From the NCBI GenBank assembly GCA_035544735.1, contig DATKCD010000013.1, positions 3,412 through 67,411 of the forward strand: DNA of 64,000 nt. Direction: 5' to 3'. Below, in pieces: positions 2,807-59,347 of this stretch. Source of the stretch: Thermoanaerobaculia bacterium (lineage in GTDB: Bacteria; Acidobacteriota; Thermoanaerobaculia; Gp7-AA8). The notes below the pieces were generated by a model, which saw only the letters and a program-made list of their open reading frames with translations, was not told the DNA's origin and did no database searches. The translations under genes and the position numbers were made by a program. Positions within the stretch are counted from its first letter, which is position 1, and each line of letters starts with the position of its first letter.

Positions 2807-3257
2807 GGGTCAGTCCTCCTCGGGCCGCTCCATCGGAGCGGGCGGTGAGCTCCCGGGCGCTCGGGTCGCGCCGGGTCGGGCGATGATCGCGCGCCGGTCA
2901 GTGGTGAAGCGACCGGGTGCGATCACGCCATACGGCGGAAGACGGCCGCCGCCACGGAACGTGACGCCCTGGGCGCTTTCTCTCGAAGCAACGGACTCCG
3001 GTTCCCGGACGTGCAACATCGACCATGAGCATGAAACCCACCTCCCACCCGCGCCGTTCGGCGCGGAGACCACGAAGCTCGGGCAATGCAGCGCCACATC
3101 TCTCCCGGATCGACACGAAGAGCGTGAAAGGAAGGCGACGAAACGGGAGGTCGCTGGAGGAGCGGCAGGCGGCCCCTGCGAGTCCCGCCGGCTGCGGGAA
3201 CCAGCCACTCCCCCCCGAAGACGAATGCGAACGAATCGATGGATCTAGGATACACCC

Positions 3258-3512
3258 GTCTGGAGCGTCTGGAGCGTCTTGGGCGTCTGGAGCGTCTTGG
3301 GCGTCTTGGGCGTCTGGAGCGTCTTGGGCGTCTGGAGCGTCTTGGGCGTCTTGGATCGGTGATACGCCAGAGTCAGAATGCAGAATGCAGAATGCAGAAT
3401 GCAGAATGCAGAATGCAGAATGCAGAAAGATGCTGGCTCACCTCCGGACTTTCGCAACTCTTCAGACACTCCTTGACGCCCTGGACACTCGAGACGCCCG
3501 AGACGCCGCAGC
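3258..3512. repeat. Composite inverted tandem-repeat element A
   Basis: Direct array of the 9-bp unit GCGTCTKGR, about 11 copies (3258-3354). Then CAGAATG heptamer x7 plus CAGAAAG (3374-3429). Then about 4 reverse-complement 9-mers GACGCCNNG (3474-3512). The element ends at the stop codon of the anti-sigma gene. Confidence 0.85.
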
Positions 3513-3979
3513 TATTCGCCCGCGAGGGCGGTATGCACGGTGAGCAGGACGGTGGCGCAGCCGAGGGTGAAGACGGCGGCGAGCAGGGAGGGAGAGACCG
3601 AGGCTCCTTCGATCGCGGAAGCGACGGCCCGGTCGAGTGAGAAATTCGCAATGACGTCCCACTTCCACGTCAGCAGCGCCGCCCAGCAGAATGCGATTAC
3701 GCCGAATCCGACGCGCTGGAGCAGATGGAGCGGCTGGAGGACCTTCTGGTCGGAGATTCGGCTGCCGAACAGTTCCGCCTTGAGCCTCAGAATGCTCGGA
3801 TCGACCGGCGCCGGAGAGCGGGGAGCCTCCGAGGCCATCCGGTTCATCCAGACGGCGACCTTCGCCGCCTCGGAGCAGTCGGCGCACGACCGCGCGTGGT
3901 CGCGCAGCGAATCCGGCAGATCGCCGTGCTTCATCGCGCGGATCAGATCGAGCTCGAGATCGCATCCTTCCCTTCTCAC
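3512..3979 (-). CDS. Anti-sigma factor, zf-HC2 type, membrane-spanning
   Basis: 155 aa. H-x3-C-x2-C motif (HARSCADC) near the N-terminus and a C-terminal TM segment. GTG start overlaps the ECF sigma stop as GTGA. Confidence 0.65.
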   Translation of the reverse strand: MRREGCDLELDLIRAMKHGDLPDSLRDHARSCADCSEAAKVAVWMNRMASEAPRSPAPVDPSILRLKAELFGSRISDQKVLQPLHLLQRVGFGVIAFCWAALLTWKWDVIANFSLDRAVASAIEGASVSPSLLAAVFTLGCATVLLTVHTALAGE

Positions 3980-5294: not shown

Positions 5295-5750
5295 ATGGCT
5301 CGCTATCAGGTCGAAGAGTACGTCCGGTGGGAGGACATCGATGCCGCCGGCATCATCAACTACCAGGCCTATCTCCGGTTCTTCGGCCTCGCGGAGGCGG
5401 AGCTGTTCCGGTCGGCGGGGCTGAGCTACCGCTATCTGTTCGACGTCCTTCACCTCTGGCTCCCGCGCGTCCGGGTGGAGTGCGACTTCCACGTGCCGGT
5501 CACCCTCGACGAGCTGCTGGTAGTCGATGCCTTCTTCGGGAAGATCGGGCGGACCTCGATTCATCTGCAGTTCGAAGTGCGGCGGAAGAGCGACCCGGGA
5601 ACGATCGTCGCAACGGGGAAGTACGTTCTGGTGGCCGTGCGGCAGGGGGAATTCGCACCGGTCGCCGTGCCCGAGGACGTTCGAAACCGGATCGCGCCGT
5701 TCGTGGAGACGACGTCTCCGCGCGGGCGGGACGACCCGAACGGGAGCTGA
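5295..5750 (+). CDS. Hotdog-fold acyl-CoA thioesterase (4HBT/YbgC-like)
   Basis: Start refined to MARYQVEEYVRWEDIDAAGIINYQAYLRFF. Typical 4HBT N-terminal strand and helix. Confidence 0.7.
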   Translation: MARYQVEEYVRWEDIDAAGIINYQAYLRFFGLAEAELFRSAGLSYRYLFDVLHLWLPRVRVECDFHVPVTLDELLVVDAFFGKIGRTSIHLQFEVRRKSDPGTIVATGKYVLVAVRQGEFAPVAVPEDVRNRIAPFVETTSPRGRDDPNGS

Positions 5751-5757
5751 GAGCCCG

Positions 5758-6429
5758 ATGCAACGCAACGACGACGATCTGCGAACGACCAGGCGCTACG
5801 CGTTCGCGACGCCGCTCCAGGCCGTGTTCGGCACCACGCCGATCGGGGTCCGAAACCTCGGATCATACGGGCTTCAGGCGGAGCACTCCGACCCGATCAA
5901 GCTGGGATCGAACGCCAGGATCGTGTTCGACATCCCTGCCGCGCGCGAGAAGATCGCCATTCGCGGCAGGCTCGTCTGGAGCCGTCTGTCGAAGACCCCG
6001 AACGAGAGGGGAAAGTATCTCTACCTGAGCGGGGTGCAGTTCGATGAATCCGCCCCATTCCCGCCTCAGGCCCTCGACACGCTCGTCCAGCTCGGCCTGG
6101 CGGTGCCGGACGACGATTCGCTCCAGAGAAAGCGCGACGAGCTCGCGCGCCGGCAGCAGGAGCGCTCGCAGGTCCGCGTCGTCCAAGTCCCTGCCGAAGA
6201 GCTCCCATCCGATCAGGCCCTGCTGGTCCAGCATGCGATCGCCCAGCTCCGCGGGAATCCCGACGAAGCGCAGAAGTGGTATCAGCGCGCCCGCTTTTCT
6301 CCTCCCGTGGTCGACGGCAAGCCGCTCCCCTATCGCGAAGACGTCGTCGCCATCTGGGAGTATCTGGGGCGCACGATCGCCATCGACGTCGTCGCCCGGG
6401 TCCTCGAGCGCGACCGAGCCCCGGAGTAG
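5758..6429 (+). CDS. PilZ-domain protein (putative c-di-GMP receptor)
   Basis: Start refined to MQRNDDDL. RR...R then NLGSYG about 20 aa later, and a GVQF..L-like end of the domain. Confidence 0.5.
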   Translation: MQRNDDDLRTTRRYAFATPLQAVFGTTPIGVRNLGSYGLQAEHSDPIKLGSNARIVFDIPAAREKIAIRGRLVWSRLSKTPNERGKYLYLSGVQFDESAPFPPQALDTLVQLGLAVPDDDSLQRKRDELARRQQERSQVRVVQVPAEELPSDQALLVQHAIAQLRGNPDEAQKWYQRARFSPPVVDGKPLPYREDVVAIWEYLGRTIAIDVVARVLERDRAPE

Positions 6430-6669
6430 CCGGGGCGTCTGGAGCGTCTGGAGCGTCTAGGGCGTCTTGGGCGTCTTGGGCGTCTAGGGCGTCTCGGGCG
6501 TCTTGGGCGTCTTGGGCGTCTTGGGCGTCTTGGGCGCTCGTCAATAGAACGCGGGACGTAGCAGGTAGAACGTAGAGAGCCTGACGGATCCGCAGACGAT
6601 CTGGACGCCGCAGACGCCGACGCTCCAGACGCTCCAGACGCTCGAGACGCCCTAGACGCCCTAGACGCC
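6430..6669. repeat. Inverted 9-bp tandem-repeat element B
   Basis: Forward GCGTCTNGN array of about 12 copies (6433-6536). Loop with TAGAACG x3. Reverse-complement array of about 8 copies (6596-6669). It spans exactly from the PilZ-gene stop to the murB stop, and the last unit CTAGACGCC contains the murB stop. Confidence 0.85.
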
Positions 6670-7749
6670 GCCGAATCCGATGAAGTTCGGCTCGGGGCGA
6701 AGGGCGATGCCGAATCGGTTCGCGACGGTCCGCTGGATCTCGGCGACGAGGCGCAGGACGTCGGTCGCCTTTCCCCCTCCACGATTGACGATCGCGAGCG
6801 TGTGCTTGGTGGAAAGCCCGACGGCTCCTGCGCCGTATCCCTTGTGGAATCCCGCCTGCTCGATGAGCCACGCAGCCGAGAGCTTGACCCGCCCCTCTCC
6901 GGTGGGCCACGAGGGGATGCGGTCGGCTCGGAGCGACGGCTCGCCGTCGACGGCCCGCCGGAGGAAGGTGTGGAGCTCTTCGGTCGAGATGATGGGATTC
7001 ATGAAGAACGAGCCGTCGCTCCGGGTGTCGGCGTCGGCGGGGTCGAGAACCATTCCCTTGCGCCGGCGGATCTCTAGCACCGCCTCGCGGACCTGAGCGA
7101 GGGTCGGCGCCCCGCCGAAGCGCTCGTCCACGAGCGCCCGCAGCTCGGGATATCGAAGCGCCGCCGCCCCGCCCGGCTGGAGCCGATACGTCACGCTCAA
7201 CACGACGAGCTCGTCGCGGCCCTCCGCCTTGAACATGCTGTCGCGATAGGTGAAGCGGCACTGCGCGTTCGAGAGGGATCGGACCCGTCCCGAGGCGACC
7301 GAGAGCACCTCGACTTCGACGACGCTCTCCGCGACCTCCTGACCGTAGGCGCCGACGTTCTGGATCGGCGTCGCACCGACCGAGCCGGGGATGCCGGAGA
7401 GGGCCTCGAAGCCGGCCCAGCCGCGCTCGCAGGCGAGCGCGGCGATCCGGTCCCACTCCTCGCCGGCGCCGACGCGCAGCCGGACCGCATCCCCCTCGCG
7501 CCCGGTGTCGATCCCGCGCAGCGCGTTGCGCAGGACCAGGCCGTCGAACCCCTCGTCGGCGATCAGGACATTGCTCCCGCCGCCGAGAAGAAACAGCGGC
7601 ACTCCCGCCCTTCCCGCCCACTCGATCCCGGCCCGCACCTGATCGAGAGAAGCCCCCTCGAGAAACCAGCGCGCCGGGCCGCCGATGCCGATCGTCGTCA
7701 TCGGCGCGAGCGGTACGTTCTCGCGCATGCCTGGAAGGAGATCGATCAT
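6661..7749 (-). CDS. murB: UDP-N-acetylenolpyruvoylglucosamine reductase
   Basis: FAD-binding N-domain (GIGGPARWF...LGGGSNVL) and MurB C-domain. Start trimmed to MIDLLPGMRENVPL. The 848-aa ORF overlapping in another frame is an artefact. Confidence 0.85.
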   Translation of the reverse strand: MIDLLPGMRENVPLAPMTTIGIGGPARWFLEGASLDQVRAGIEWAGRAGVPLFLLGGGSNVLIADEGFDGLVLRNALRGIDTGREGDAVRLRVGAGEEWDRIAALACERGWAGFEALSGIPGSVGATPIQNVGAYGQEVAESVVEVEVLSVASGRVRSLSNAQCRFTYRDSMFKAEGRDELVVLSVTYRLQPGGAAALRYPELRALVDERFGGAPTLAQVREAVLEIRRRKGMVLDPADADTRSDGSFFMNPIISTEELHTFLRRAVDGEPSLRADRIPSWPTGEGRVKLSAAWLIEQAGFHKGYGAGAVGLSTKHTLAIVNRGGGKATDVLRLVAEIQRTVANRFGIALRPEPNFIGFGGV

Positions 7750-8000
7750 CGGCGGGACTCGCCGGCGCCGGACCCTGCGCGCCGCGACCCGCGAAGTATC
7801 TCCACAATTCGGCGCGATGCCAAGCCGCCGGCGACCCCCCGCGGATCTCCGCGCCGAAGCCGGAATGAGGCGTTTGCTGGCGATCTGATCCGCAGTCAGG
7901 ACAGACGGACTCGTCCGCACGGCGGCATTGGGCACGCGTTTTGTGTTGCCAATGGGTTGCTCCGCGATCCTGCGGAGCGACGACAAGGAGGAAAGAAGTC

Positions 8001-19894: not shown

Positions 19895-20445
19895 CGCCGC
19901 TTCGCGGCAAATGCAGAATGCAAAATGTAAAAGAGTGTCGCGATAGTTCGGGCGGTCAGTGCGCTCCCGAATGATCATGACCCGGAAGGCTTCTCACGGA
20001 ATCGGGGGCCGAGTCGTAGGAGTCCGCCGGCCGCAAGGCCGGCCCCTCTCCCGGTGGGAGAGGGTGCCGAGCGAAGCGAGGCGGGTGAGGGGCGCGGGCG
20101 GTGACGGAGTGACCGTACGCACGACGGACGAAGCGGAGCAACTGCGCGCGCCGCGAGCTTCGCGCGAGGCGAGCGGGCGGAGAATCCCCTCACCCGCCTG
20201 CGCCTCCCTTCGGTCGGCTCCGGCACCCTCTCCCAGAGGGAGAGGGGCGTCTCGCGCAGCCTGAGCCGAGTGCGAAAGGGACCTCATGCCACGGAGTCAG
20301 ATCGAGAAGGCGCTGCGCATGCGCGGACGTGCCGAGGCGAAGGAAAGTCATCACACTCGAGCGCGCTGACCGCCGGGAACCAGCGTGACGTCCTTTTACA
20401 TTTTGCATTTTGCATTCTGCATTCTGCATTTGCCGCGAAGCGGCG
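19895..20445. repeat. MITE-like element E
   Basis: Left end CGCCGCTTCGCGGCAAATGCAGAATGCAAAATGTAAAAG. The right end is its reverse complement with two extra heptamer units. The core has nested palindromes: CCCTCTCCCGGTGGGAGAGGG(TGCC) at 20040-20065 pairs with (GGCA)CCCTCTCCCAGAGGGAGAGGG at 20222-20250, and GCGAGGCGGGTGAGGGGCG pairs with CGCCCCTCACCCGCCTGCGC. No plausible ORF inside. Confidence 0.7.
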
Positions 20446-26202: not shown

Positions 26203-26715
26203 ATGCTTCGGGCCCGGGATGAAGAGATCGGACGCACGCCCGAGCTGGTGATCGCGACCCTGACCGACGCGCGCGAGGCCGACACGGCCCGCGCGGCGCT
26301 CGGCTCGGCCGGAATCGCGGCGCGCGTCACCACCATCGCCACTCCGAAGCTCGGAGCCGGCGGCGAGCGCGTCGACGTCAGGTTCGGCGTCTCCGTCGCA
26401 CCCCACGACGCCCGCCACGCCATCGAGATCCTCCACGCGCGCCTCACCTCGACCGACGGCGACGCCATCGAGCTCGATCTCGACGAGCCCCTCGAGCCTC
26501 CCCGCCACGTCCGTTGTCCCGAATGCGAATCCGAACAGGTCAGAACCACCTCGACCGTCATCGGCGCCCTTCTCGGCGCCGCCGTCCTCGCCGCCGTCGG
26601 CTGGGCCATCGGTCAGGAAGACGTCTTCTACCTCGCCGCCGTCATCGTCGCCCTCATCCTGGTCCTCGGTCCCAACCGCCGATGCCTCCAGTGCGGCCAT
26701 CGCTGGATGGAGTAG
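26203..26715 (+). CDS. DUF2007-like protein with C-terminal TM segment and Cys4 zinc-ribbon
   Basis: 170 aa. CPECES...CLQCGH. Confidence 0.5.
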   Translation: MLRARDEEIGRTPELVIATLTDAREADTARAALGSAGIAARVTTIATPKLGAGGERVDVRFGVSVAPHDARHAIEILHARLTSTDGDAIELDLDEPLEPPRHVRCPECESEQVRTTSTVIGALLGAAVLAAVGWAIGQEDVFYLAAVIVALILVLGPNRRCLQCGHRWME

Positions 26716-27144
26716 GAGCGTCTGGGGCGTCTGGAGCGTCTGGGGCGTCTGGAGCGTCTTGTGCGTCTAGGGCGTCTTGTGCGTCTTGGGCGTCTTGTGC
26801 GTCTCGGGCGTCTTGTGCGTCTAGGGCGTCTTGTGCGTCTTGTGCGTCTTGAGCGTCTAGGGCGTCTTGTGCGTCTTGAGCGTCTGGAGCGTCTAGGGCG
26901 TCTTGTGCGTCTTGAGCGTCTTGAGCGTCTGGAGCGTCTGGAGCGTTTTGAGCGTCTGGAGCGTCTGGACCATCTTGGGCGTCTGGCGCGGCACGGCCCG
27001 GTGCAGGTGAATCGATTCCAGACGCACGAGGAGCACGAGGCGCCCCAGACCCCCTAGACGCACAAGACGCTCTAGACGCTCTAGACGCCCTAGACGCCCT
27101 AGACGCCCTAGACGCACAAGACGCACAAGACGCTCAAGACGCCC
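26716..27144. repeat. Inverted 9-bp tandem-repeat element C (largest copy)
   Basis: About 30 direct GCGTCTNGN units (26716-26990). 60-bp spacer. About 10 reverse-complement units (27050-27144). Runs from the DUF2007 stop to the terC stop. Confidence 0.9.
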
Positions 27145-28138
27145 CATTTCCCGGCTCTTCGGGCTCTTCGATGGGGGGAAAGGCCCGCGGGTCGGGGAGG
27201 ACGTCGGCGGCGGGTCCGAGGCGGCGGGCGCGGATCACGGAGGCGAGCACGGCGAGCAGGAGCACGCCGAGAATCACCGACAAGGACGCGACGATGGGGA
27301 TCTTCACCCACTCGGAGACGACCATCTTGACGCCGACGAAGGTAAGGATGACGGCGAGTGCGGGGCGAAGGTAGTAGAAGCGGTCGATGACGCCGGCGAG
27401 AAGGAAGTAGAGAGCCCGGAGGCCGAGAATCGCGAAGACGTTGGATGTATAGACGATGAAGGGGTCGTGGGTAACGGCGAAGACGGCGGGGATGGAGTCG
27501 ACGGCGAAGATCAGATCGCTCGTCTCGATGACGATCAGCACGAGGACGAGCGGAGTGAGGACGACATTCCCGGCCGCATCCCTTATGTAGAATTTTTCTC
27601 CCTGATAGTCCGAGGTCATCGCGAAGCGCCGGCGCACGAGCTTCACGAGCGGGTTGTCGTCGATGTGGACCGAGTCCTCCTCCTTCTGGACGGCGATCTT
27701 GATTCCGGTGTAGATCAGGAAGAAGCCGAAGACGTAGATGATCCAGTGGAAGCGGACGATGAGGGCCGCGCCGATGCCGATCATGATCGCGCGCATGACG
27801 AAGGCGCCGAGAATGCCCCAGTAGAGGACGCGGTGCTGGAAGGCGGCAGGAACCCGGAACGCCGAGAAGATCAGAACGAAGACGAAGATGTTGTCGACGC
27901 TGAGCGACTTCTCGATGACGTATGCGGTGAAGTACTCGAGGGCGGGCTCGGGCCCCTTCCACCAGTAGACGACGGCGTTGAAGATCAGCGCGAGGGAGAT
28001 CCAGACGGCGCTCCAGGCGATCGCTTCGCGGATCGAGACCGCATGCGATTTCCGGTGGAAAACGCCGAGGTCGAGGGCGAGGACGCCCAGGACGAACACC
28101 GTGAAGATCACCCACGGAAGGACCGTGCTCAGCTCCAT
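27134..28138 (-). CDS. terC: TerC-family integral membrane protein
   Basis: 334 aa. Multiple TM helices with conserved charged residues (EKSLSVDNIFVF). Confidence 0.85.
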   Translation of the reverse strand: MELSTVLPWVIFTVFVLGVLALDLGVFHRKSHAVSIREAIAWSAVWISLALIFNAVVYWWKGPEPALEYFTAYVIEKSLSVDNIFVFVLIFSAFRVPAAFQHRVLYWGILGAFVMRAIMIGIGAALIVRFHWIIYVFGFFLIYTGIKIAVQKEEDSVHIDDNPLVKLVRRRFAMTSDYQGEKFYIRDAAGNVVLTPLVLVLIVIETSDLIFAVDSIPAVFAVTHDPFIVYTSNVFAILGLRALYFLLAGVIDRFYYLRPALAVILTFVGVKMVVSEWVKIPIVASLSVILGVLLLAVLASVIRARRLGPAADVLPDPRAFPPIEEPEEPGNGAS

Positions 28139-44422: not shown

Positions 44423-45292
44423 TCAGTTTTCCGACGCACGGCGCGCTCCCTCCGCTCCGAGCACCCCGCACCACCACTCTCCTTTCGATGCCTCTTCGAC
44501 GACGTTCAGTCCGGTGAGCCGTGCGGCGGCGACGACTTCGTCGCGGTACGGAAGCATGATCCCGCTCACGATCGCCCGTCCGCCGGAGGCGAGCATGGCG
44601 GCGAGGCGGGGAAGATTGGGGACGATCACGTCGGGCAGGATGTTCATCGTCACGAGATCGAAGCGGGCGGAGGGGGCGAGGGCGTCGATCGGCCCGATGA
44701 AGAATTCGATCCGGCCCGGGGGGACCTGGTTGCGCTCGAGGTTCTTCGGGACGATCTCCCACGTCACGGGATCGTCGTCGAAGGCGAAGACGCGCGCGGC
44801 GCCGAGACGGAACATCCCGATCGCGAGGATTCCACTCCCCGTTCCGACGTCGAGACCGCGGCGCTCGACCATCTCGATCGTCTCGAGCATCTCGAGGCAG
44901 AGCGCAGTCGACTCGTGCGAGCCCGTCCCGAACGCCCGCTCCTGAGGAATTACGATCGGATCGCGTCCCGGCTCGCGCGGCAGCAGCGAAGCGTCCGGAG
45001 CCACCACGAACCGCCGGCCGATGAAGAGCGGCTCGAGCGACTGCCGGTACAGCTCCAGCCAGTCCTTCCGTTCGCGGTCCTGCTCCTCGAGCTCCAGCCC
45101 CTCGACCTCTCCCAGCACGGCGCGCGCTTCGGCACGCTCCTCCGCCGAGTCGAACCAGCACGCCACGACCGTCCGCCCTCCCCGCTCCCCGATCTCGCAC
45201 CCGCGGCAGCTCGTCAGGAACAGCAGCCCCTCCACGCGATCATCGAGATCCGTCCGCGGCTCGTAGACGATCTCGAGAACAAAGTCGCGCAT
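44423..45292 (-). CDS. prmA: Ribosomal protein L11 methyltransferase
   Basis: Start refined to MRDFVLEI. SAM motif LDVGTGSGILAI and TMNIL. The upstream part of the listed ORF (KTLKTLKT...) is a translated repeat. Confidence 0.85.
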   Translation of the reverse strand: MRDFVLEIVYEPRTDLDDRVEGLLFLTSCRGCEIGERGGRTVVACWFDSAEERAEARAVLGEVEGLELEEQDRERKDWLELYRQSLEPLFIGRRFVVAPDASLLPREPGRDPIVIPQERAFGTGSHESTALCLEMLETIEMVERRGLDVGTGSGILAIGMFRLGAARVFAFDDDPVTWEIVPKNLERNQVPPGRIEFFIGPIDALAPSARFDLVTMNILPDVIVPNLPRLAAMLASGGRAIVSGIMLPYRDEVVAAARLTGLNVVEEASKGEWWCGVLGAEGARRASEN

Positions 45293-45738
45293 GGGCGTCT
45301 TGGGCGTCTTGGGCGTCTTGGGCGTCCTGGGCGTCTGGAGCGTCCTGGGCGTCTTGGGCGTCTTGAGCGTCTTGAGCGTCTTGAGCGTCTTGAGCGTCTT
45401 GAGCGTCTTGAGCGTCGAGTATCGATTCACGTCGAAGATCCGGACCGTCCCCTGCCGTCGGCCGCACCGGGTCGGCCCGAGAGCCCGAGGAGTGAGGAGC
45501 AGGATCGTTCTATCTTCTACGTTCTACGTTCTACGTTCTATGTTCTGCGTTCAAGAAGATCTACAGAGGCTCCAGACGCTCCAGACGCTCCAGACGCTCC
45601 AGACGCTCCAGACGCTCCAGACGCTCCAGACGCTCCAGACGCCCTAGACGCTCCAGACGCCCTAGACGCCCTAGACGCCCTAGACGCTCAAGACGCCCTA
45701 GACGCTCCAGACGCCCTGGACGCCCAAGACGCTCAAGA
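45293..45738. repeat. Inverted 9-bp tandem-repeat element D
   Basis: About 14 direct GCGTCTNGN units (45293-45416). Unique spacer. ACGTTCT-type heptamer x5-6 (45511-45556). About 19 reverse-complement units (45565-45738) that cover the dnaJ stop. Confidence 0.9.
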
Positions 45739-46857
45739 GTCGGTGCCGGTGAAGAACTTCTTCGCTTTCCGGAAGACATTCGGCTCGGGGATTTCTTCTC
45801 CCTCGAGCTTCGCGTACTCCTCGAGGAGCTCGCGCTGACGCCCTTCGACCGAGGTCGGAATCTGGACGGTCACGTGGACGTAGTGATCGCCGCGGCCGCT
45901 GCCGTCGATCCACGGAACGCCCTTCCCCCGGATGCGGAAGATCTGGCTCGGCTGGGTTCCCGGGGGGATCCTGAGCGTCTCCGGGCCGTGAACGGTCTGG
46001 ACGGAGAGCTCGGCGCCGAGGGCTGCGCGCGTGAACGTGAGCGGCTCCTCGGAGTGAATGTCGTAGTCGCGCCGGGTGAACCGCGGATGCTCCTCGACGG
46101 AGATGAAGACGTAGAGGTCTCCCTGAGGGCCTCCGTTGGTTCCGGCCTCGCCTTCCGCGGCGAGGCGTAGGCGGGTGCCGTCGTCGACGCCGGGAGGGAT
46201 CTTGACGGTGATGCCCTTCTGCTCGCGGACGCGGCCGGCGCCGCCGCAGTCGGCGCAGGCGTCGGTGATCACGCGCCCGCTGCCGCCGCACTGGGGACAG
46301 GTGCGGGCGACGGCGAGAAAGCCCTGCGAGTACCGAACCTGTCCGCGGCCGCCGCAGAGGGTGCAGGGGGTCGGAGAAGTCCCCGGCTTCGCACCCGAGC
46401 CGCCGCACGGGGCGCAGGTTGCGGCGCGAGGGACTTCGATCCGGACGTCCTTGCCGAAGACGGCGTCCTCGAAGGCGAGACCGAGATCGTATCGGAGGTC
46501 GGCGCCCCGCATGGCGCGGGTGCCGCGCCGGCGACCTCCGCCGAACAGATCGCCGAAGCCGAACAGGTCGCCGAGGATGTCGGCGAAATCGGTGAACTGA
46601 GAGGGGTCGAAGCCGACGCCGGCGCCGAGGCCGCCGTGGCCGAACCGGTCGTATTTCGACCGCTTGTCGGCGTCGGAAAGGACGGCGTACGCCTCGGCGG
46701 CCTCCTTGAACTTCTCCTCGGCTGTCGCGTCTCCGGGGTTCTTGTCCGGGTGAAACTGGACGGCGAGGCGGCGGTAGGCCTTCTTGATCTGATCGACCGA
46801 GGCGTCGCGGGAAACGCCGAGAACCTCGTAATAGTCTCTTTTCTCGATTGTGGCCAT
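45733..46857 (-). CDS. dnaJ: Chaperone DnaJ
   Basis: J-domain HPD (HPDKNP). G/F region. Four CxxCxGxG zinc-finger repeats. Confidence 0.95.
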
Positions 46858-46870
46858 CGGGGATTCTGGT

Positions 46871-48703
46871 TCACTCCACGACGGGGGGCTGGGTCTTGAG
46901 CGGGTTGTAGAGCATGACGGTGGTCAGGATGCGCGAGGCATTCTGGAGCTCGAAGATGGCGTCGTTGATCGCGTTTCTCTGTTCGCTCGTGACGGCCGCC
47001 TTGCCGGCGTTGATGGCCTTCTGGACCTTGTCGCGGTCTTCATCCGGGAGGAGTTTGCCGAACTCGCGGAAGACTTTCTCGTTGGTGTAGACCATCCCCT
47101 CGAGCTTGTTCTGGAGCTGGCGGATCTCGCGGCGCTCCTGGTCGGCGCGGGAGTGCTCCTGGGCTTCGTTGATGATGCGATCGATCTCGTCCTGAGTCAG
47201 ACCGCCGGCGGGATTGATCTGGACGCCCTGCTGCTGGCCGGTGGCCTGGTCGCGTGCGGTCACGTGCACGATGCCGTTCGAATCGATCGAGAAGGTGACC
47301 TCGATCTGGGGAACGCCGCGGGGTGCCGGAGGGATTCCGACCAGATCGAACTTGCCGAGGGATTTGTTCTCGCGGGAGAACTCGCGCTCGCCCTGCAGGA
47401 CGTGGATCTGCACCTTGTTCTGGTTCTCGGCGACGGTGGTGAAGATGAGGGAGTTCTTGGTCGGAATGGTGGCGTTGCGCTCGATGATCTTCGCGAACAG
47501 CCCGCCGTGGGTCTCGATGCCGAGCGAGAGGGGCGTGACGTCGAGCAGGACCATGTCCTTGATGTCGCCCCGGAGGATCGCCCCCTGCACGGCGGCTCCA
47601 ACCGCCACGACCTCGTCGGGATTGATGTTCCGGTTCGGATCCTTGCCGAAGACCCCTTTGACCGCTTCGATGACCTTCGGCATGCGCGTCTGCCCCCCGA
47701 CCAGGACGACCTCGTCGATCTGACTGGGGGAGAGGGCGGCGGCTTCGAGCGCGTTGCGGACCGGGTCGATCGTCTTCTGAATGAGGTCGTCGACCATCCG
47801 CTCGAACTCGGCGCGGCCCAGGACGCGGTTCAGATGCTTCGGACCCGACTGATCGGCGGAGATGAACGGCAGCGTGATGCGCGTTTCCTCGACCTGCGAG
47901 AGCTCACACTTCGCCTTTTCCGCCGCCTCCTTCAGCCGCTGCAGGGCCATCCGATCGTCGCGCAGATCGATCCCCGCTTCCCGTTGGAATCCCTCGATCA
48001 GCCAGTCGATGATCCGCTTGTCGAAGTCCTCCCCGCCGAGATAGGTGTCGCCGGAGGTCGAGAGCACCTCGAACAGACCGTCCTCGAGCTTCAGGATCGA
48101 GATGTCGAACGTTCCCCCGCCGAGGTCGTAGACGGCGATGATCTGATTCTTCTTGTTGTCGAGCCCGTAGGCGAGTGCGGCCGCGGTCGGCTCGTTGATG
48201 ATCCGGAGCACTTCGAGCCCCGCGATCCGCCCGGCATCGCGCGTGGCCTGCCTCTGGGAGTCGTTGAAGTAGGCGGGAACGGTGATGATCGTCTCCGTGA
48301 TCGCCTCGCCGAGGAACTCCTCGGCGAATGCCCGGATCTCCATCAGGACGAAGGCCGACACTTCCTCGGGCGAGAATTCGCGTTCGCGGATCTTGACCTT
48401 GATGTCGCCGTTGGACGCCGACACCACCTGGTAGGGAAGGACCTGCTTGGCGCGCGAGACTTCCTCGGTGTCGAATTTGCGGCCGATCAGGCGCTTGATC
48501 GCATAGACCGTATTGAACGGATTGGTGATCGCCTGGCGCTTCGCGATCTGTCCGACCAGACGCTCCCCGTCCTCGGTGAATCCGACCACCGAGGGGGTGG
48601 TCCGACTTCCCTCGCGGTTCGGTACGACCTGCGGAGTCGACACGTCGACTACGGCGACGCAGGAGTTCGTGGTGCCGAGATCGATTCCGATGATCTTCCC
48701 CAT
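46871..48703 (-). CDS. dnaK: Chaperone DnaK (Hsp70)
   Basis: Start refined to [39 protein letters not shown]. Confidence 0.97.
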
Positions 48704-48710
48704 GCAATCC

Positions 48711-49364
48711 TCAGGACGGCTCCCCGCCCTCTGTCTCACCACTCCTCGGAGCCGCCGAGACCTTCACGAGCGCCGGTCGCAGCAGCCGGTCGTGCAACAG
48801 ATACCCCTTCTGGAGTACGTCGATCACACGATTCGGCTCCACTTCGTCGGTCTCTTCGCGGGCGATTGCCTCATGGTACGACGGATCGAACGGTTGTCCA
48901 GCGGGATCGTTCGAGCTGAGCCCCGCCCGGGCCAGCACGTCCGCAAGCTGCCTCTGGATCATCTCGACTCCCGTCCGGAAGTCATCGGCCGCCCCTCCCT
49001 CCACCGCGAGTGCCCGCTCGAGATTGTCGAGCACGGGCAGCAGTTCCCGGAGCGTGTCGGCCAGCGCGTAACGGCGGAACTCGCTCCGCTCCCGCTCGGC
49101 CCGTTTTCTGTAATTCTCCAGGTCGGCCCGTGTGCGGAGCAACTGGTCGCGCAGCTTCTCGCTTTCCGCCCGAACGGACTCGGCTCCGCCGCCCGCACCG
49201 CGCCCGGAACCGGCGGGCGGCGAGCTCGAATCCTCCTCACCGACCGGAACCGGGGCCTCCCGATAGCCGGCGAGCTCCTGAACCTCGTCGAGATCGCCGC
49301 TGTCGTCGATGACGTAAATGTCCTCGTCGCCGGAAACGTCGTCCGGCTCTTTTCGATCGCTCAC
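48711..49364 (-). CDS. grpE: Nucleotide exchange factor GrpE
   Basis: 217 aa. GrpE coiled-coil and beta domain. GTG start overlapping the hrcA stop as GTGA. Confidence 0.88.
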   Translation of the reverse strand: MSDRKEPDDVSGDEDIYVIDDSGDLDEVQELAGYREAPVPVGEEDSSSPPAGSGRGAGGGAESVRAESEKLRDQLLRTRADLENYRKRAERERSEFRRYALADTLRELLPVLDNLERALAVEGGAADDFRTGVEMIQRQLADVLARAGLSSNDPAGQPFDPSYHEAIAREETDEVEPNRVIDVLQKGYLLHDRLLRPALVKVSAAPRSGETEGGEPS

Positions 49365-50448: not shown

Positions 50449-50475
50449 TTAGCACTCCTCCGCACTGAGTGCCAA
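50449..50475. promoter_or_regulatory. CIRCE operator (HrcA binding site)
   Basis: TTAGCACTC-ctccgcact-GAGTGCCAA. 17 of 18 match to TTAGCACTC-N9-GAGTGCTAA. Lies 6 nt upstream of the hrcA ATG. Confidence 0.85.
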
Positions 50476-50502
50476 ACTACCCGGGCGGCGGGGTGCTGTC
50501 AA
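50474..50502 (-). promoter_or_regulatory. Sigma-70-type promoter of the hrcA operon
   Basis: Minus strand reads TTGACA-17 nt-TAGTTT. The -10 overlaps the distal CIRCE half-site. Confidence 0.5.
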
Positions 50503-51372: not shown

Positions 51373-51510
51373 TCCGGGCAAATGCAAAATGCACAATGCA
51401 AAATAATGCAAAATGGACAATCCAAAAAGGAGCCGACGACCCTCGACCGTCGCCGACCGATTCTGGCTGCTTCTCTTTGGATTGTGCATCGTGCAGTTTG
51501 CATTCGGCCG
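51373..51510. repeat. Heptamer-array hairpin element F
   Basis: Left arm CCTCCGGGCAAATGCAAAATGCACAATGCAAAATAATGCAAAATGGACAATCCAAAAAG. Right arm is its imperfect reverse complement (CTTTGGATTGTGCATCGTGCAGTTTGCATTCGGCCGGAGG). 37-bp loop. Confidence 0.75.
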
Positions 51511-58210: not shown

Positions 58211-59226
58211 GCGAGCGCGCGGCGATCCTGCTCGCGGGGGGGGCCGGCACGCGCCTCTGGCCTCTGAGCACCGACGAGCGGCCCAAGCAGTTCCTCCGGA
58301 TCTTCGAAGGACGCTCGCTCCTGCAGATCGCCTTCTCCCGCATGCGGAACCTCCTTCCGGCCGACCGGATCTTCGTCGCGGCCCACGAGCGCCATCGCGA
58401 AGCGATCTTCGCCGAGCTGCCCGAGCTCCCCCCCGACAACGTCCTGCTCGAGCCCGAGCGGCGGAACACCGCGCCCGCGATCGCCGTCTCCTGCTCGCAG
58501 GTCGCGCGCACCCTCGCCGGCGATCCGGTCATCGGGATCTTCCCCTCCGATCACTTCGTCGCGGACGAGGACGCATTCGTCCGCACCGTCGACCGCGCCT
58601 TCCGCTTCGCCGCGACCGAGCCGTTTCTCGTCACGATCGGAATCGATCCCGATCATCCCAACACCGGCTTCGGATATCTCGAGCTCGGAGAGACGATGGG
58701 GGACGAAGTCATCCGGCTGCTCCGCTTCGTCGAGAAGCCGACGCGGGAGCGCGCCGAGGAGTTCGTCCGGAGCGGGCGGTTCGTCTGGAACGGAGGGATG
58801 TTCGTCTGGCGCCGGAGCACCTTCGAGAACGCGCTGGAGGCGACCGCTCCGGAGATCGCGGCGATCGCCCGGAAGCTCGCCGGCGCTTCGGCAGCCGAGC
58901 GGAAGACCCTCTACGCGCAGATGCCTTCGATCTCGATCGACTTCGCCGTGATGGAGAAGGCGCCGAACGTCGCGACCGTCCGGGGATCGTTCGGCTGGTC
59001 CGACGTCGGGTCGTGGAAGGCCGTCGCGAAGATCGTCGGGCAGGGACTGGAGGAGGGAGTGATCCGCGAAGAGTCGCCCGGCTCGCTGGTGCACGCCCGA
59101 GGCGACCGCCCCGTCATCCTCATCGGCGTGCCCAACATCGCCGTCGTCGACGTCCCCGAAGGACTCCTCGTCATCGACCTCGACCGATCCGAGCACCTCG
59201 CCTCGGTCCTCAAGAAGCATGAGTAA
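58207..59226 (+). CDS. manC: Mannose-1-phosphate guanylyltransferase (GDP-mannose pyrophosphorylase)
   Basis: ATG at 58207 overlaps the upstream stop (ATGA). LLAGGAGTRLWPLS nucleotidyl-transferase motif. The listed 1746-aa ORF is an artefact. Confidence 0.85.
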   Translation: MSERAAILLAGGAGTRLWPLSTDERPKQFLRIFEGRSLLQIAFSRMRNLLPADRIFVAAHERHREAIFAELPELPPDNVLLEPERRNTAPAIAVSCSQVARTLAGDPVIGIFPSDHFVADEDAFVRTVDRAFRFAATEPFLVTIGIDPDHPNTGFGYLELGETMGDEVIRLLRFVEKPTRERAEEFVRSGRFVWNGGMFVWRRSTFENALEATAPEIAAIARKLAGASAAERKTLYAQMPSISIDFAVMEKAPNVATVRGSFGWSDVGSWKAVAKIVGQGLEEGVIREESPGSLVHARGDRPVILIGVPNIAVVDVPEGLLVIDLDRSEHLASVLKKHE

Positions 59227-59347
59227 GGCATTGATGATTGATGATTGATGATTGATGATTGACGGCTCGATCATCGAGCATCAATCATAGATCATCAATC
59301 AAAAATGCCTTTCAATCATCAATCATAGATCATAGATCATCAATGCC
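59227..59347. repeat. TGATTGA-heptamer inverted-repeat element G
   Basis: GGCATTGA(TGATTGA)x4...central palindrome GCTCGATCATCGAGC...TCAATCA/TAGATCA units...TCATCAATGCC. Terminal inverted repeats GGCATTGATGA/TCATCAATGCC. The right repeat contains the ATG (59343-59345) of the next gene. Confidence 0.85.

Follow-up and report, generated by a model that had tools for sequence, protein, structure and literature searches.

REP hairpins in E. coli operons make the mRNA upstream of them more stable, and the cyanobacterial STRR heptamers are intergenic tandem heptamers. In 1997 Supply et al. reportedly described the MIRUs, mycobacterial tandem repeats that lie inside operons and overlap the upstream stop and the downstream start, and proposed a role for them in translational coupling. 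A REP unit is by definition a tagged stem-loop of 20-40 bp, in which a stem of 5-13 bp closes a loop of 2-20 nt and the tag at one end is GTAG or CGTC (PMC3733652). Correia hairpins are reported to be co-transcribed, to be bound and cleaved or protected by RNase III, and to alter the expression of adjacent genes (PMC2649163). The TAACTGA heptamers of Beggiatoaceae, cyanobacteria and Bacteroidetes are abundant, intergenic and shared across distant genomes. They occur as single direct arrays of 2-43 copies in one orientation, with one inverted set in a Beggiatoa genome, and most end a few nt from a start codon (the largest class 1 nt upstream), replacing the ribosome-binding site (PMC4679880). 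Eukaryotic Foldback and Galileo transposons have long inverted arms of short tandem repeats and a variable centre (PMC3573991).

Here we describe element D, which fills the gap between dnaJ and prmA in a 64-kb window (the whole stretch of DNA that was analysed). Element D is one resident copy of a lineage-specific family of intergenic tandem-array hairpins.

Results

The operon around element D

Homuth et al. are said to have described, also in 1997, a heptacistronic dnaK operon in B. subtilis (hrcA-grpE-dnaK-dnaJ-yqeT(prmA)-yqeU-yqeV) in which prmA is co-transcribed with the chaperone genes. We found hrcA, grpE, dnaK, dnaJ and prmA on the minus strand of the window, each with a strong Pfam match (5/5). 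Their order and the CIRCE/HrcA control match those of the B. subtilis operon. The features are:

50449-50475, minus strand: CIRCE operator with 1 mismatch, just upstream of hrcA
49361-50443/50455, minus strand: hrcA (Pfam); ATG 50443 is the probable start
48711-49364, minus strand: grpE (Pfam)
46871-48703, minus strand: dnaK (Pfam)
45733-46857, minus strand: dnaJ, upstream of D, 374 aa (Pfam)
44423-45292, minus strand: prmA, downstream of D, 289 aa (Pfam)

The operon promoter reads TTGACA-N17-TAGTTT, with the -35 TTGACA at 50497-50502 and the -10 TAGTTT at 50474-50479, where it overlaps CIRCE. Judged from its sequence, hrcA-grpE-dnaK-dnaJ-prmA is a heat-shock operon of the HrcA/CIRCE type, as the CIRCE operator confirms. 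The original prediction had hrcA-grpE-dnaK-dnaJ tightly packed with GTGA, and the spacing agrees: hrcA shares a GTGA overlap with grpE (49361-49364), grpE and dnaK are 7 nt apart if ATG 48703 starts dnaK, and 13 nt separate dnaK from dnaJ. Unlike the window operon, the B. subtilis operon is not known to have a giant repeat hairpin in its dnaJ-prmA junction.

No Rfam family matched anywhere in the 64-kb window at gathering thresholds. At E <= 1, the only matches were far sub-threshold miRNA-hairpin models in D and in the elements of two fetched loci (L097 and L028), which are meaningless. No tRNA or tmRNA was found in the window.

Anatomy and predicted fold of element D

Element D occupies 446 bp (window positions 45293-45738), and the dnaJ-prmA gap is taken up by its facing 9-bp arrays. 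On the plus strand, Tandem Repeats Finder reported 13.6 copies of GCGTCTNGN at 45295-45416 (92% matches) and an inverted 9-bp array of 19.4 copies at 45564-45738 (88%). In a repeat search the arms came out at 124 nt, with 88% complementarity. GCGTCTNGNGCGTCT, a pattern of two units, is present 95 times in the 64-kb window, where 0.52 occurrences are expected. In the order of the mRNA, the parts of D are:

45564-45738, minus strand: 5' arm, about 19 units of GCGUCUNGN
45506-45552, minus strand: inner heptamer array, (GAACGYA)x6.7 on the mRNA, which is (CGTTCTA)x6.7 on the plus strand
45417-45505, minus strand: unique G+C-rich centre, a local stem-loop in the predicted fold
45293-45416, minus strand: 3' arm, about 13.6 units of NCNAGACGC

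The dnaJ stop (TGA, 45735-45733) sits within a unit-like 9-mer, GACTCTTGA, the first on the mRNA. At the other end, the 3' arm reaches the base before the prmA ATG and takes up the position of a ribosome-binding site. These limits agree with the extent originally given for D, from the dnaJ stop inside the last repeat unit to the base before the ATG at 45292. The distance from the dnaJ stop to the prmA start is 443 nt, which is not a multiple of 3.

Between the arms lies a centre of 147 nt (45417-45563), made up of an 89-nt G+C-rich unique segment and a second tandem array. The original prediction of a 95-bp unique loop was right that there is a unique segment; that segment is merely part of the longer centre, which it shares with the (CGTTCTA)x6.7 array. 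The inner heptamer array has no inverted partner in D.

The mRNA strand of D was predicted to fold at -299.3 kcal/mol, compared to -200.4 +/- 6.6 kcal/mol for dinucleotide shuffles (z = -15). The predicted stem is about 120 bp long with 1 mismatch per 9 bp, and its base is formed by the nucleotides directly 3' of the dnaJ stop and those directly 5' of the prmA AUG. The tandem arrays, the complementarity of the arms and the fold thus bear out the claim that a repeat hairpin fills this gap.

The prmA start and candidate routes of expression

We found that the prmA ATG (45292-45290) abuts the array with zero spacer. This start aligns with the N-termini of 19 homologues. The 30 nt upstream of it contain repeat sequence only and no Shine-Dalgarno motif; such motifs are present before many other genes of the window. 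When 44900-46100 was scanned for consensus sites, neither a sigma-70-like promoter nor, on either strand, a hairpin with a U-tract terminator was found. D itself does not look like an intrinsic terminator, as it has no U-tract and the ATG directly follows its 3' arm. That prmA has no conventional promoter or ribosome-binding site, as originally proposed, is therefore upheld within these limits. With no promoter, terminator or Shine-Dalgarno motif at prmA, the simplest route to its expression is read-through of the structured spacer. Read-through had been one of two routes suggested for prmA; it is plausible and has comparative support from the hairpin kept at this junction in related lineages (below).

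The other suggested route was a promoter in the central loop. In that case the leader of the prmA transcript would be the C/A-rich 3' arm alone, free of structure. Some route of expression is needed, the A+T-richer heptamer array in the centre begins TTGAAC, and Correia elements are reported to create promoters (PMC2649163). However, no promoter consensus was found in the unique centre (45417-45505), and the wider scan of 44900-46100 gave no sigma-70-type match even though the promoter of the operon is a clear one. Nor is any loop sequence common to the sister elements or the fetched loci: orthologous loops are entirely different, and that of one relative (L100) is only about 53 nt long. We consider a loop promoter very unlikely.

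A coding role for the repeats was also considered. The frame 5' of the prmA ATG is open for 77 codons, a GTG at 45430 lies 46 codons upstream, and 9 bp make 3 codons, so that the spacer might hold a small ORF or the array might encode (L/P)KT repeats at the N-terminus of PrmA. Against this, homologues begin at the position of ATG 45292, in-frame stops occur 2-16 codons upstream of prmA in 6/8 orthologues with no alternative start, and GTG 45430 is not preceded by a Shine-Dalgarno motif. The stops ruled out a conserved N-terminal extension of PrmA, and a coding role of either kind is scarcely credible. Tandem-array hairpins do invite gene callers to add false N-terminal extensions of this kind, an example being the 335-aa prmA ORF from GTG 45430.

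Sister elements in the window

Besides D, the window contains three other 9-mer elements (A, B and C) and two heptamer elements (E and F), mostly between convergent genes:

3257-3508, no strand assigned: element A, 10.9 9-mer units, an inner (CAGAATG)x7.7, a unique segment and a degenerate inverted arm
6433-6669, no strand assigned: element B, in the convergent gap between a PilZ-like and a murB-like gene
26716-27144, no strand assigned: element C, 29.9 + 11.6 units, in the convergent gap between a DUF gene and a terC-like gene
51380-51510, no strand assigned: element E, degenerate heptamer arrays in inverted orientation, AAATGCA ... TTGCATT, in a convergent gap
59230-59345, plus strand: element F, inverted heptamer arrays ATTGATG ... 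TCAATCA, in a co-directional gap

All four 9-mer elements (A-D) are intergenic, and the elements fit closely between their genes. Element A, which has a higher-order period of 27 bp, ends 4 nt from the stop of the gene at 3512-3979 (minus strand). Element B begins 3 nt past the stop of 5527-6429 (plus strand), and the stop of the murB-like gene (6661-7986, minus strand) lies within its last unit. Element C likewise begins 0 nt past the stop of 26203-26715 (plus strand) and contains the stop of the terC-like gene (27134-28138, minus strand) in its last unit. Element F fills the space that separates an NTP-transferase gene (TAA at 59224-59226) from an amidohydrolase gene, whose ATG (59343) it overlaps; as in D, a Shine-Dalgarno motif is lacking. 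Each of A, B, C, E and F folds far better than shuffled sequences on both strands (z = -4.6 to -14).

The loops of A, B, C and D had no similarity by BLAST to each other or to any fetched locus. A model in which the elements are copies of one MITE was rejected on this lack of loop homology.

The original prediction tied D to heat shock. This was overstated, as the family is dispersed among convergent, co-directional and divergent gaps. D is a generic family member, and any effect on the heat-shock operon is a local consequence rather than the work of a purpose-built device.

The family in other genomes

When one genome per GTDB species was scanned, paired intergenic arrays of GCGTCTNGN turned up in the Thermoanaerobaculia MAG JBOGJQ01, on many contigs, several of which end inside arrays, and also in the Acidobacteriota MAG CAWCBB01. 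Hairpins of tandem arrays with 7-9-bp units were common in the roughly 90 acidobacterial loci that we fetched. In these loci and the window, nearly all element ends lie 0-40 nt from the ends of flanking genes. Co-directional and convergent gaps hold most elements of the fetched loci, divergent gaps some.

Arrays in JBOGJQ01 flank a palindromic core of about 150 nt, GTCATCCTGAG...GGATC. The core (GTCATCCYGAGCG...GGATC) is found between arrays both in JBOGJQ01 and in L097/L098, and in another locus (L083) the core is flanked by a different 7-mer array. The core is absent from the 64-kb window, even allowing 3 mismatches. Because the core occurs with other arrays and is missing from the window, arrays and cores are separable modules. 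In alignments, the inner heptamer array of D and a degenerate one in the centre of B match the outer arms of a composite element built of heptamers, of which JBOGJQ01 has three copies.

Matches outside Acidobacteriota (Streptomyces, Paraburkholderia, Xenobia, Planctomycetota and others) were mostly single arrays in long open frames and were set aside as unrelated coding repeats. Viral contigs gave 7 single-orientation matches in 2.9 million contigs, and this near-absence indicates that the element is not phage-borne. Literature searches turned up no account of elements of this kind in Acidobacteria or Thermoanaerobaculia. The tandem-array hairpins are apparently an undescribed family of gap-filling repeats in Thermoanaerobaculia (Acidobacteriota).

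The dnaJ-prmA junction in related lineages

The closest PrmA in the database is 65% identical to that of the window. In all eight related lineages that were checked (PrmA 58-65% identical), repeat or inverted-repeat sequence lies upstream of prmA. The gap is complete in seven cases, the window and six lineages beside it (L180, L097, L098, L181, L183 and L100). The junctions of the relatives are:

L180, dnaJ-prmA gap: GCGTCTNGN unit; its end, ...GACGCCC followed by ATG, is identical to the window
L182 (JBOGJQ01): contig starts within the 9-mer array, 9 nt upstream of the ATG
L097, L098 and L099, gaps: GAGTCTNGG 8/9-mer variant and palindromic core; the L099 sequence equals that of L098
L100, dnaJ-prmA gap: GGGACTA 7-mers; loop of about 53 nt
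L181, dnaJ-prmA gap: GGCAGAA 7-mers
L183, dnaJ-prmA gap: plain inverted repeat

We found that each of the seven complete gaps folds as one hairpin that runs from the dnaJ stop to the prmA start. In the minimum-energy fold of all seven, the 20 nt before prmA pair with positions 1-57 after the dnaJ stop. The z-scores of the seven folds range from -2.7 (L183) to -16.8. No Shine-Dalgarno motif precedes prmA in 7/8 orthologues, and L182 has a weak AAGG. The repeat unit has been replaced between lineages and complementarity has been kept, which amounts to covariation at the scale of whole arms. That a stop-to-start hairpin is kept at this junction in related lineages favours a role over an accident.

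The convergent prmA-gltA gap on the other side of prmA holds arrays of GAATGCA or GAACGCA in four lineages, and the loops there are unconserved. In distant relatives (about 50% identity), dnaJ is followed by a pyrophosphatase gene and then by prmA, whose start overlaps the pyrophosphatase stop (ATGCGTGA, GTGA). Another distant relative, L144, has a dnaJ-prmA gap of 41 nt with no hairpin. From the overlap of the pyrophosphatase stop with the prmA start, prmA appears to have been ancestrally coupled in translation to an upstream gene.

Repeat unit, slippage and arm polarity

Seven of the nine unit positions (1-6 and 8) are 91-97% invariant across the eight arms of A-D, and across loci and genomes. 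Positions 7 and 9 vary within a small set of types (TGG, GGA, AGG, TGA, TGT and CGG), and they fail to match between the two arms of an element. Runs of identical units and higher-order periods are particular to each of the eight arms, a signature of local slippage or unequal exchange in each arm. Two resemblances of the unit are treated as probable coincidence: that of GCGTCTGGA to the Neisseria uptake sequence GCCGTCTGAA, and the presence within it of the CGTC tag of some REPs.

The arms have a fixed polarity. The 5' arm has more G than C and the 3' arm more C than G in 36/38 inverted-array elements (p ~5e-9) and in 21/23 unit families (p ~7e-5), whichever strand is read. In the 9-mer family the GCGTCT-array comes first and the AGACGC-array second in 12/12 elements, so that the inward orientation is fixed. 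Formation of a hairpin does not by itself predict that the G-rich arm comes first. The polarity might have its origin in selection against exposing a C-rich, Rho-loading first arm, or in telomere-like repeat addition at both 3' ends of a break.

The signs of slippage are what would be expected of a passive satellite, that is, of selfish or neutral slippage arrays that are tolerated outside coding sequence, would do nothing useful between dnaJ and prmA, and form a hairpin only as a by-product of having the unit in both orientations. Slippage or unequal exchange typically leaves higher-order periods and stretches of identical units such as these. The two arms are unlike in length and unit variants, each loop is unique with no conservation, intergenic contexts of all kinds contain elements, and no target-site duplication or link to a transposase was seen. 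However, neutral junk would not be expected to have the G-rich arm first in 36 of 38 elements, or to keep seven positions of the 9-mer nearly invariant across genomes. The repeats at the junction in 8/8 lineages, the stop-to-start hairpin kept in six complete gaps despite replacement of the unit, and the heptamer arrays kept between prmA and gltA in four lineages also argue against it. We regard this explanation, the main rival to a role for the hairpin, as unlikely.

The near-invariance of seven of nine positions might instead reflect a role at the level of DNA, with the units as phased sites, symmetric about the centre, for a lineage-specific DNA-binding protein. Kinds of protein that could be considered are nucleoid-associated proteins, roadblocks, uptake-sequence-like systems and recombination factors. 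Consistent with such a role, the other two positions vary freely with no covariation between arms, the inward orientation is fixed in all 12 elements of the 9-mer family, and GCGTCTNGN and GAATGCA/GAACGCA recur in genomes whose PrmA is only 50-65% identical. But at the dnaJ-prmA junction the unit is replaced by unrelated 7-mers (L100 and L181) or by an inverted repeat that is not an array (L183), and the hairpin is kept, which speaks for structure and against a particular binding motif. A candidate binding protein was not found. A DNA-level role is improbable on this evidence.

Discussion

Based on these results we suggest, with about even confidence, that D is a long-lived, co-transcribed structured spacer that would limit the expression of prmA and partly uncouple it from that of the chaperone genes. 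The facing arrays would grow and shrink by slippage or unequal exchange and so fill the non-coding gap up to the stop and start codons. RNA polymerase would read from dnaJ through D, and the folded stem would act as a barrier or processing site: a block to 3'-exonucleases, a target for a dsRNA endonuclease, or a partial block to read-through. It would protect the dnaJ (chaperone) end of the transcript and bury a prmA start that has no Shine-Dalgarno motif. PrmA output would then be low and in part independent of the chaperones. In this the stem would resemble REP in E. coli operons and Correia in Neisseria, the intercistronic repeat hairpins that have been studied most.

Several observations qualify this suggestion. 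The uneven arms (19.4 and 13.6 units) and their unmatched variable positions point to independent slippage, not to a finely selected stem. The family also lies between convergent and divergent genes, which argues against a single operon-specific role. Persistence of the hairpin could reflect self-perpetuating repeat dynamics instead of selection. It might also be that a near-perfect duplex of 120 bp terminates or destroys the transcript outright, leaving prmA in need of a promoter.

Alternatively, the hairpin may be a translational bridge that sets the dnaJ stop beside the prmA start and so preserves the ancestral stop/start coupling. On this model, ribosomes that finish dnaJ would open the last turns of the stem and start again on prmA, 443 nt away, in a bacterial analogue of ribosome shunting. 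Tandem-array hairpins would be tolerated or selected in operon junctions for preserving coupling, and having the G-rich arm first would keep the first-transcribed arm from loading Rho. The geometry of stop beside start is also found in element F and in L001, L180, L100 and L181. We consider the bridge unlikely.

The structured spacer remains our preferred reading of D, and the family has consequences of a more general kind. If it is as it appears, hairpins of facing arrays fill the intergenic gaps of a whole bacterial class, from stop codon to start codon. Such hairpins would replace ribosome-binding sites, and the junctions would be kept over long evolutionary times while their sequence turns over. 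They would offer a natural system for studying translation without a Shine-Dalgarno motif behind massive RNA structure, the survival of long near-palindromes in bacterial DNA, and the reason for the fixed polarity of the arms. They also break short-read assemblies, as seen in the contigs of JBOGJQ01 that end inside them.

Comparison with known systems

The elements resemble the REPs and BIMEs of enterobacteria and pseudomonads in being dispersed and extragenic, at the 3' ends of genes or between cistrons, and in forming RNA hairpins. Four intergenic 9-mer elements lie within 64 kb, and many more in JBOGJQ01 and CAWCBB01. REPs and BIMEs are co-transcribed and are credited with mRNA stabilisation and attenuation, and the D unit even contains CGTC. 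However, the unit is 9 bp with no internal palindrome, pairing is solely between opposite arrays, and there are 4-30 units per arm. REPs and BIMEs are often paired head to head and linked to a RAYT transposase, whereas no transposase link was seen here.

Like the Correia elements (CREE/NEMIS) and other MITEs, the family consists of intergenic inverted repeats that form long hairpins. MITEs have a conserved interior, defined terminal inverted repeats and target-site duplications, whereas the arms here are tandem arrays of variable length. The loops of A-D are dissimilar and the JBOGJQ01 core is missing from the window. Inspection of the outer junctions of A-D showed no target-site duplication, which is a weak test where the ends are themselves repeats. 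The pattern of presence and absence is also not that of a MITE, with the dnaJ-prmA junction occupied in 8/8 close lineages, prmA-gltA in four, and only the distant L144 empty. CRISPRs have repeats of 23-50 bp and unique spacers; here the 9-mers are contiguous and spacer-free, in two inverted blocks. In architecture D resembles the Foldback and Galileo elements, but these are eukaryotic, of kilobase scale and mobilised by a transposase, and evidence of transposition was not seen for D.

The closest parallels in position are with the STRR/TAACTGA heptamers and the MIRUs. As with the former, no base separates D from the prmA ATG, F extends over the ATG at 59343, and neither has a Shine-Dalgarno motif. 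Unlike those single direct arrays, the arrays here are inverted pairs that face each other, form a hairpin and also abut stop codons. As in MIRUs, the first unit contains the dnaJ TGA and the last is directly followed by the prmA ATG, an arrangement also found in L180, L100 and L181. MIRUs are direct repeats of 46-101 bp with a small ORF in phase and form no giant hairpin; D is built of inverted 9-bp units, and the 443 nt between the dnaJ stop and the prmA start are out of phase. If the family holds as described, these hairpins of facing arrays would be a new architectural type among bacterial intergenic repeats, beside REP, BIME, MITE, MIRU and STRR.

Arm polarity and composite elements

We found that nearly all inverted tandem-array elements have a common polarity. 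Among the elements of the window (A-F) and of the fetched loci from other genomes (L001-L183), 36 of 38 have more G than C in the 5' arm and more C than G in the 3' arm, on either strand. Counted by unit family, the rule holds for 21 of 23. Hairpin formation by itself is an insufficient explanation for this polarity.

Three loci of one metagenome-assembled genome (MAG) carry a composite nested element, [GAACGCA]x4 [GAATGCA]x5 loop [TTCTGCA]x5 [CGTTCTG]x4:

L044, 6096-6336: composite nested element
L050, 2738-2972: composite nested element
L054, 1839-2068: composite nested element

The three have the same copy numbers, with divergent loops and flanks, and all (3/3) end no more than 10 nt from a downstream ATG.

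Heptamer arrays in the window

Element F (59224-59345), which lies between an NTP-transferase gene and the ATG of an amidohydrolase gene, comprises a single ATTGATG-type heptamer array and a pair of TCAATCA-type arrays complementary to it, three in all. The ATTGATG-type array can pair with either of the others. Such alternative pairing would leave the array adjoining the amidohydrolase ATG free or bury it, an attenuator-like layout. Two single heptamer arrays, separated by 461 nt, share their unit family with element E and with element A's inner array:

19909-19932: (AAATGCA)x3.4
20394-20431: (TTTTGCA/TTCTGCA)x5.4

These may be two half-elements or one very large element.

A palindromic core with or without arrays

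A palindromic core of ~150 nt (GTCATCC[CT]GAGCG..GCGA[AG]GGATC ... inverted) is widespread among the acidobacterial loci, both with and without tandem arrays on its flanks:

L026, L027, L028, L054, L057, L083: palindromic core, Thermoanaerobaculia MAG JBOGJQ01
L097/L098, 3746-3915: palindromic core, dnaJ-prmA gap of related lineages
L096, L104, L113, L141, L161, L178: palindromic core, further loci

The core matched no family in Rfam. It looks like a separate REP/MITE-like family.

The heat-shock operon

We located a CIRCE operator and promoter upstream of hrcA:

50449-50502, minus strand: CIRCE operator TTGGCACTC-N9-GAGTGCTAA (1 mismatch) and promoter

The -10 (TAGTTT) overlaps the operator, and the -35 (TTGACA) lies upstream with a 17-nt spacer. 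This layout argues that hrcA probably starts at ATG 50443, not at GTG 50455 of the ORF list.

At the dnaJ-prmA junction of two related species, a small hairpin contains the dnaJ stop codon (L097, 3664-3691; L098, 3636-3663), with compensatory substitutions (CGTAGCCGCG/CGCGGCTACG versus CGTAGGCGCC/GGCGCCTACG, respectively). Relatives at ~50% PrmA identity (L116, L118, L126, L131, L142, L117, L123) have an inorganic pyrophosphatase gene (ppa) between dnaJ and prmA. The stop codon of ppa and the start codon of prmA overlap (ATGCCGAGTGA, ATGCGTGA, GTGA), and several of these loci contain other long hairpins in the dnaJ-ppa spacer.

The arrays also bear on annotation and assembly. With GTG 45430 as its start, the longest ORF for prmA (44423-45430, minus strand) runs through the repeat arm, which it renders as (L/P)KT repeats. 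This 335-aa product is false but may be predicted by automatic gene callers. MAG contigs, e.g., JBOGJQ010000196, break within repeat arrays.

Resemblance to the Neisseria uptake sequence

The 9-mer units (GCGTCTGGA, GCGTCTTGA) of element D (45293-45738), in the dnaJ-prmA gap, and of all other 9-mer arrays are similar to GCCGTCTGAA, the DNA uptake sequence of Neisseria. That sequence, too, is found in inverted pairs 3' of genes. This likeness is probably a coincidence.
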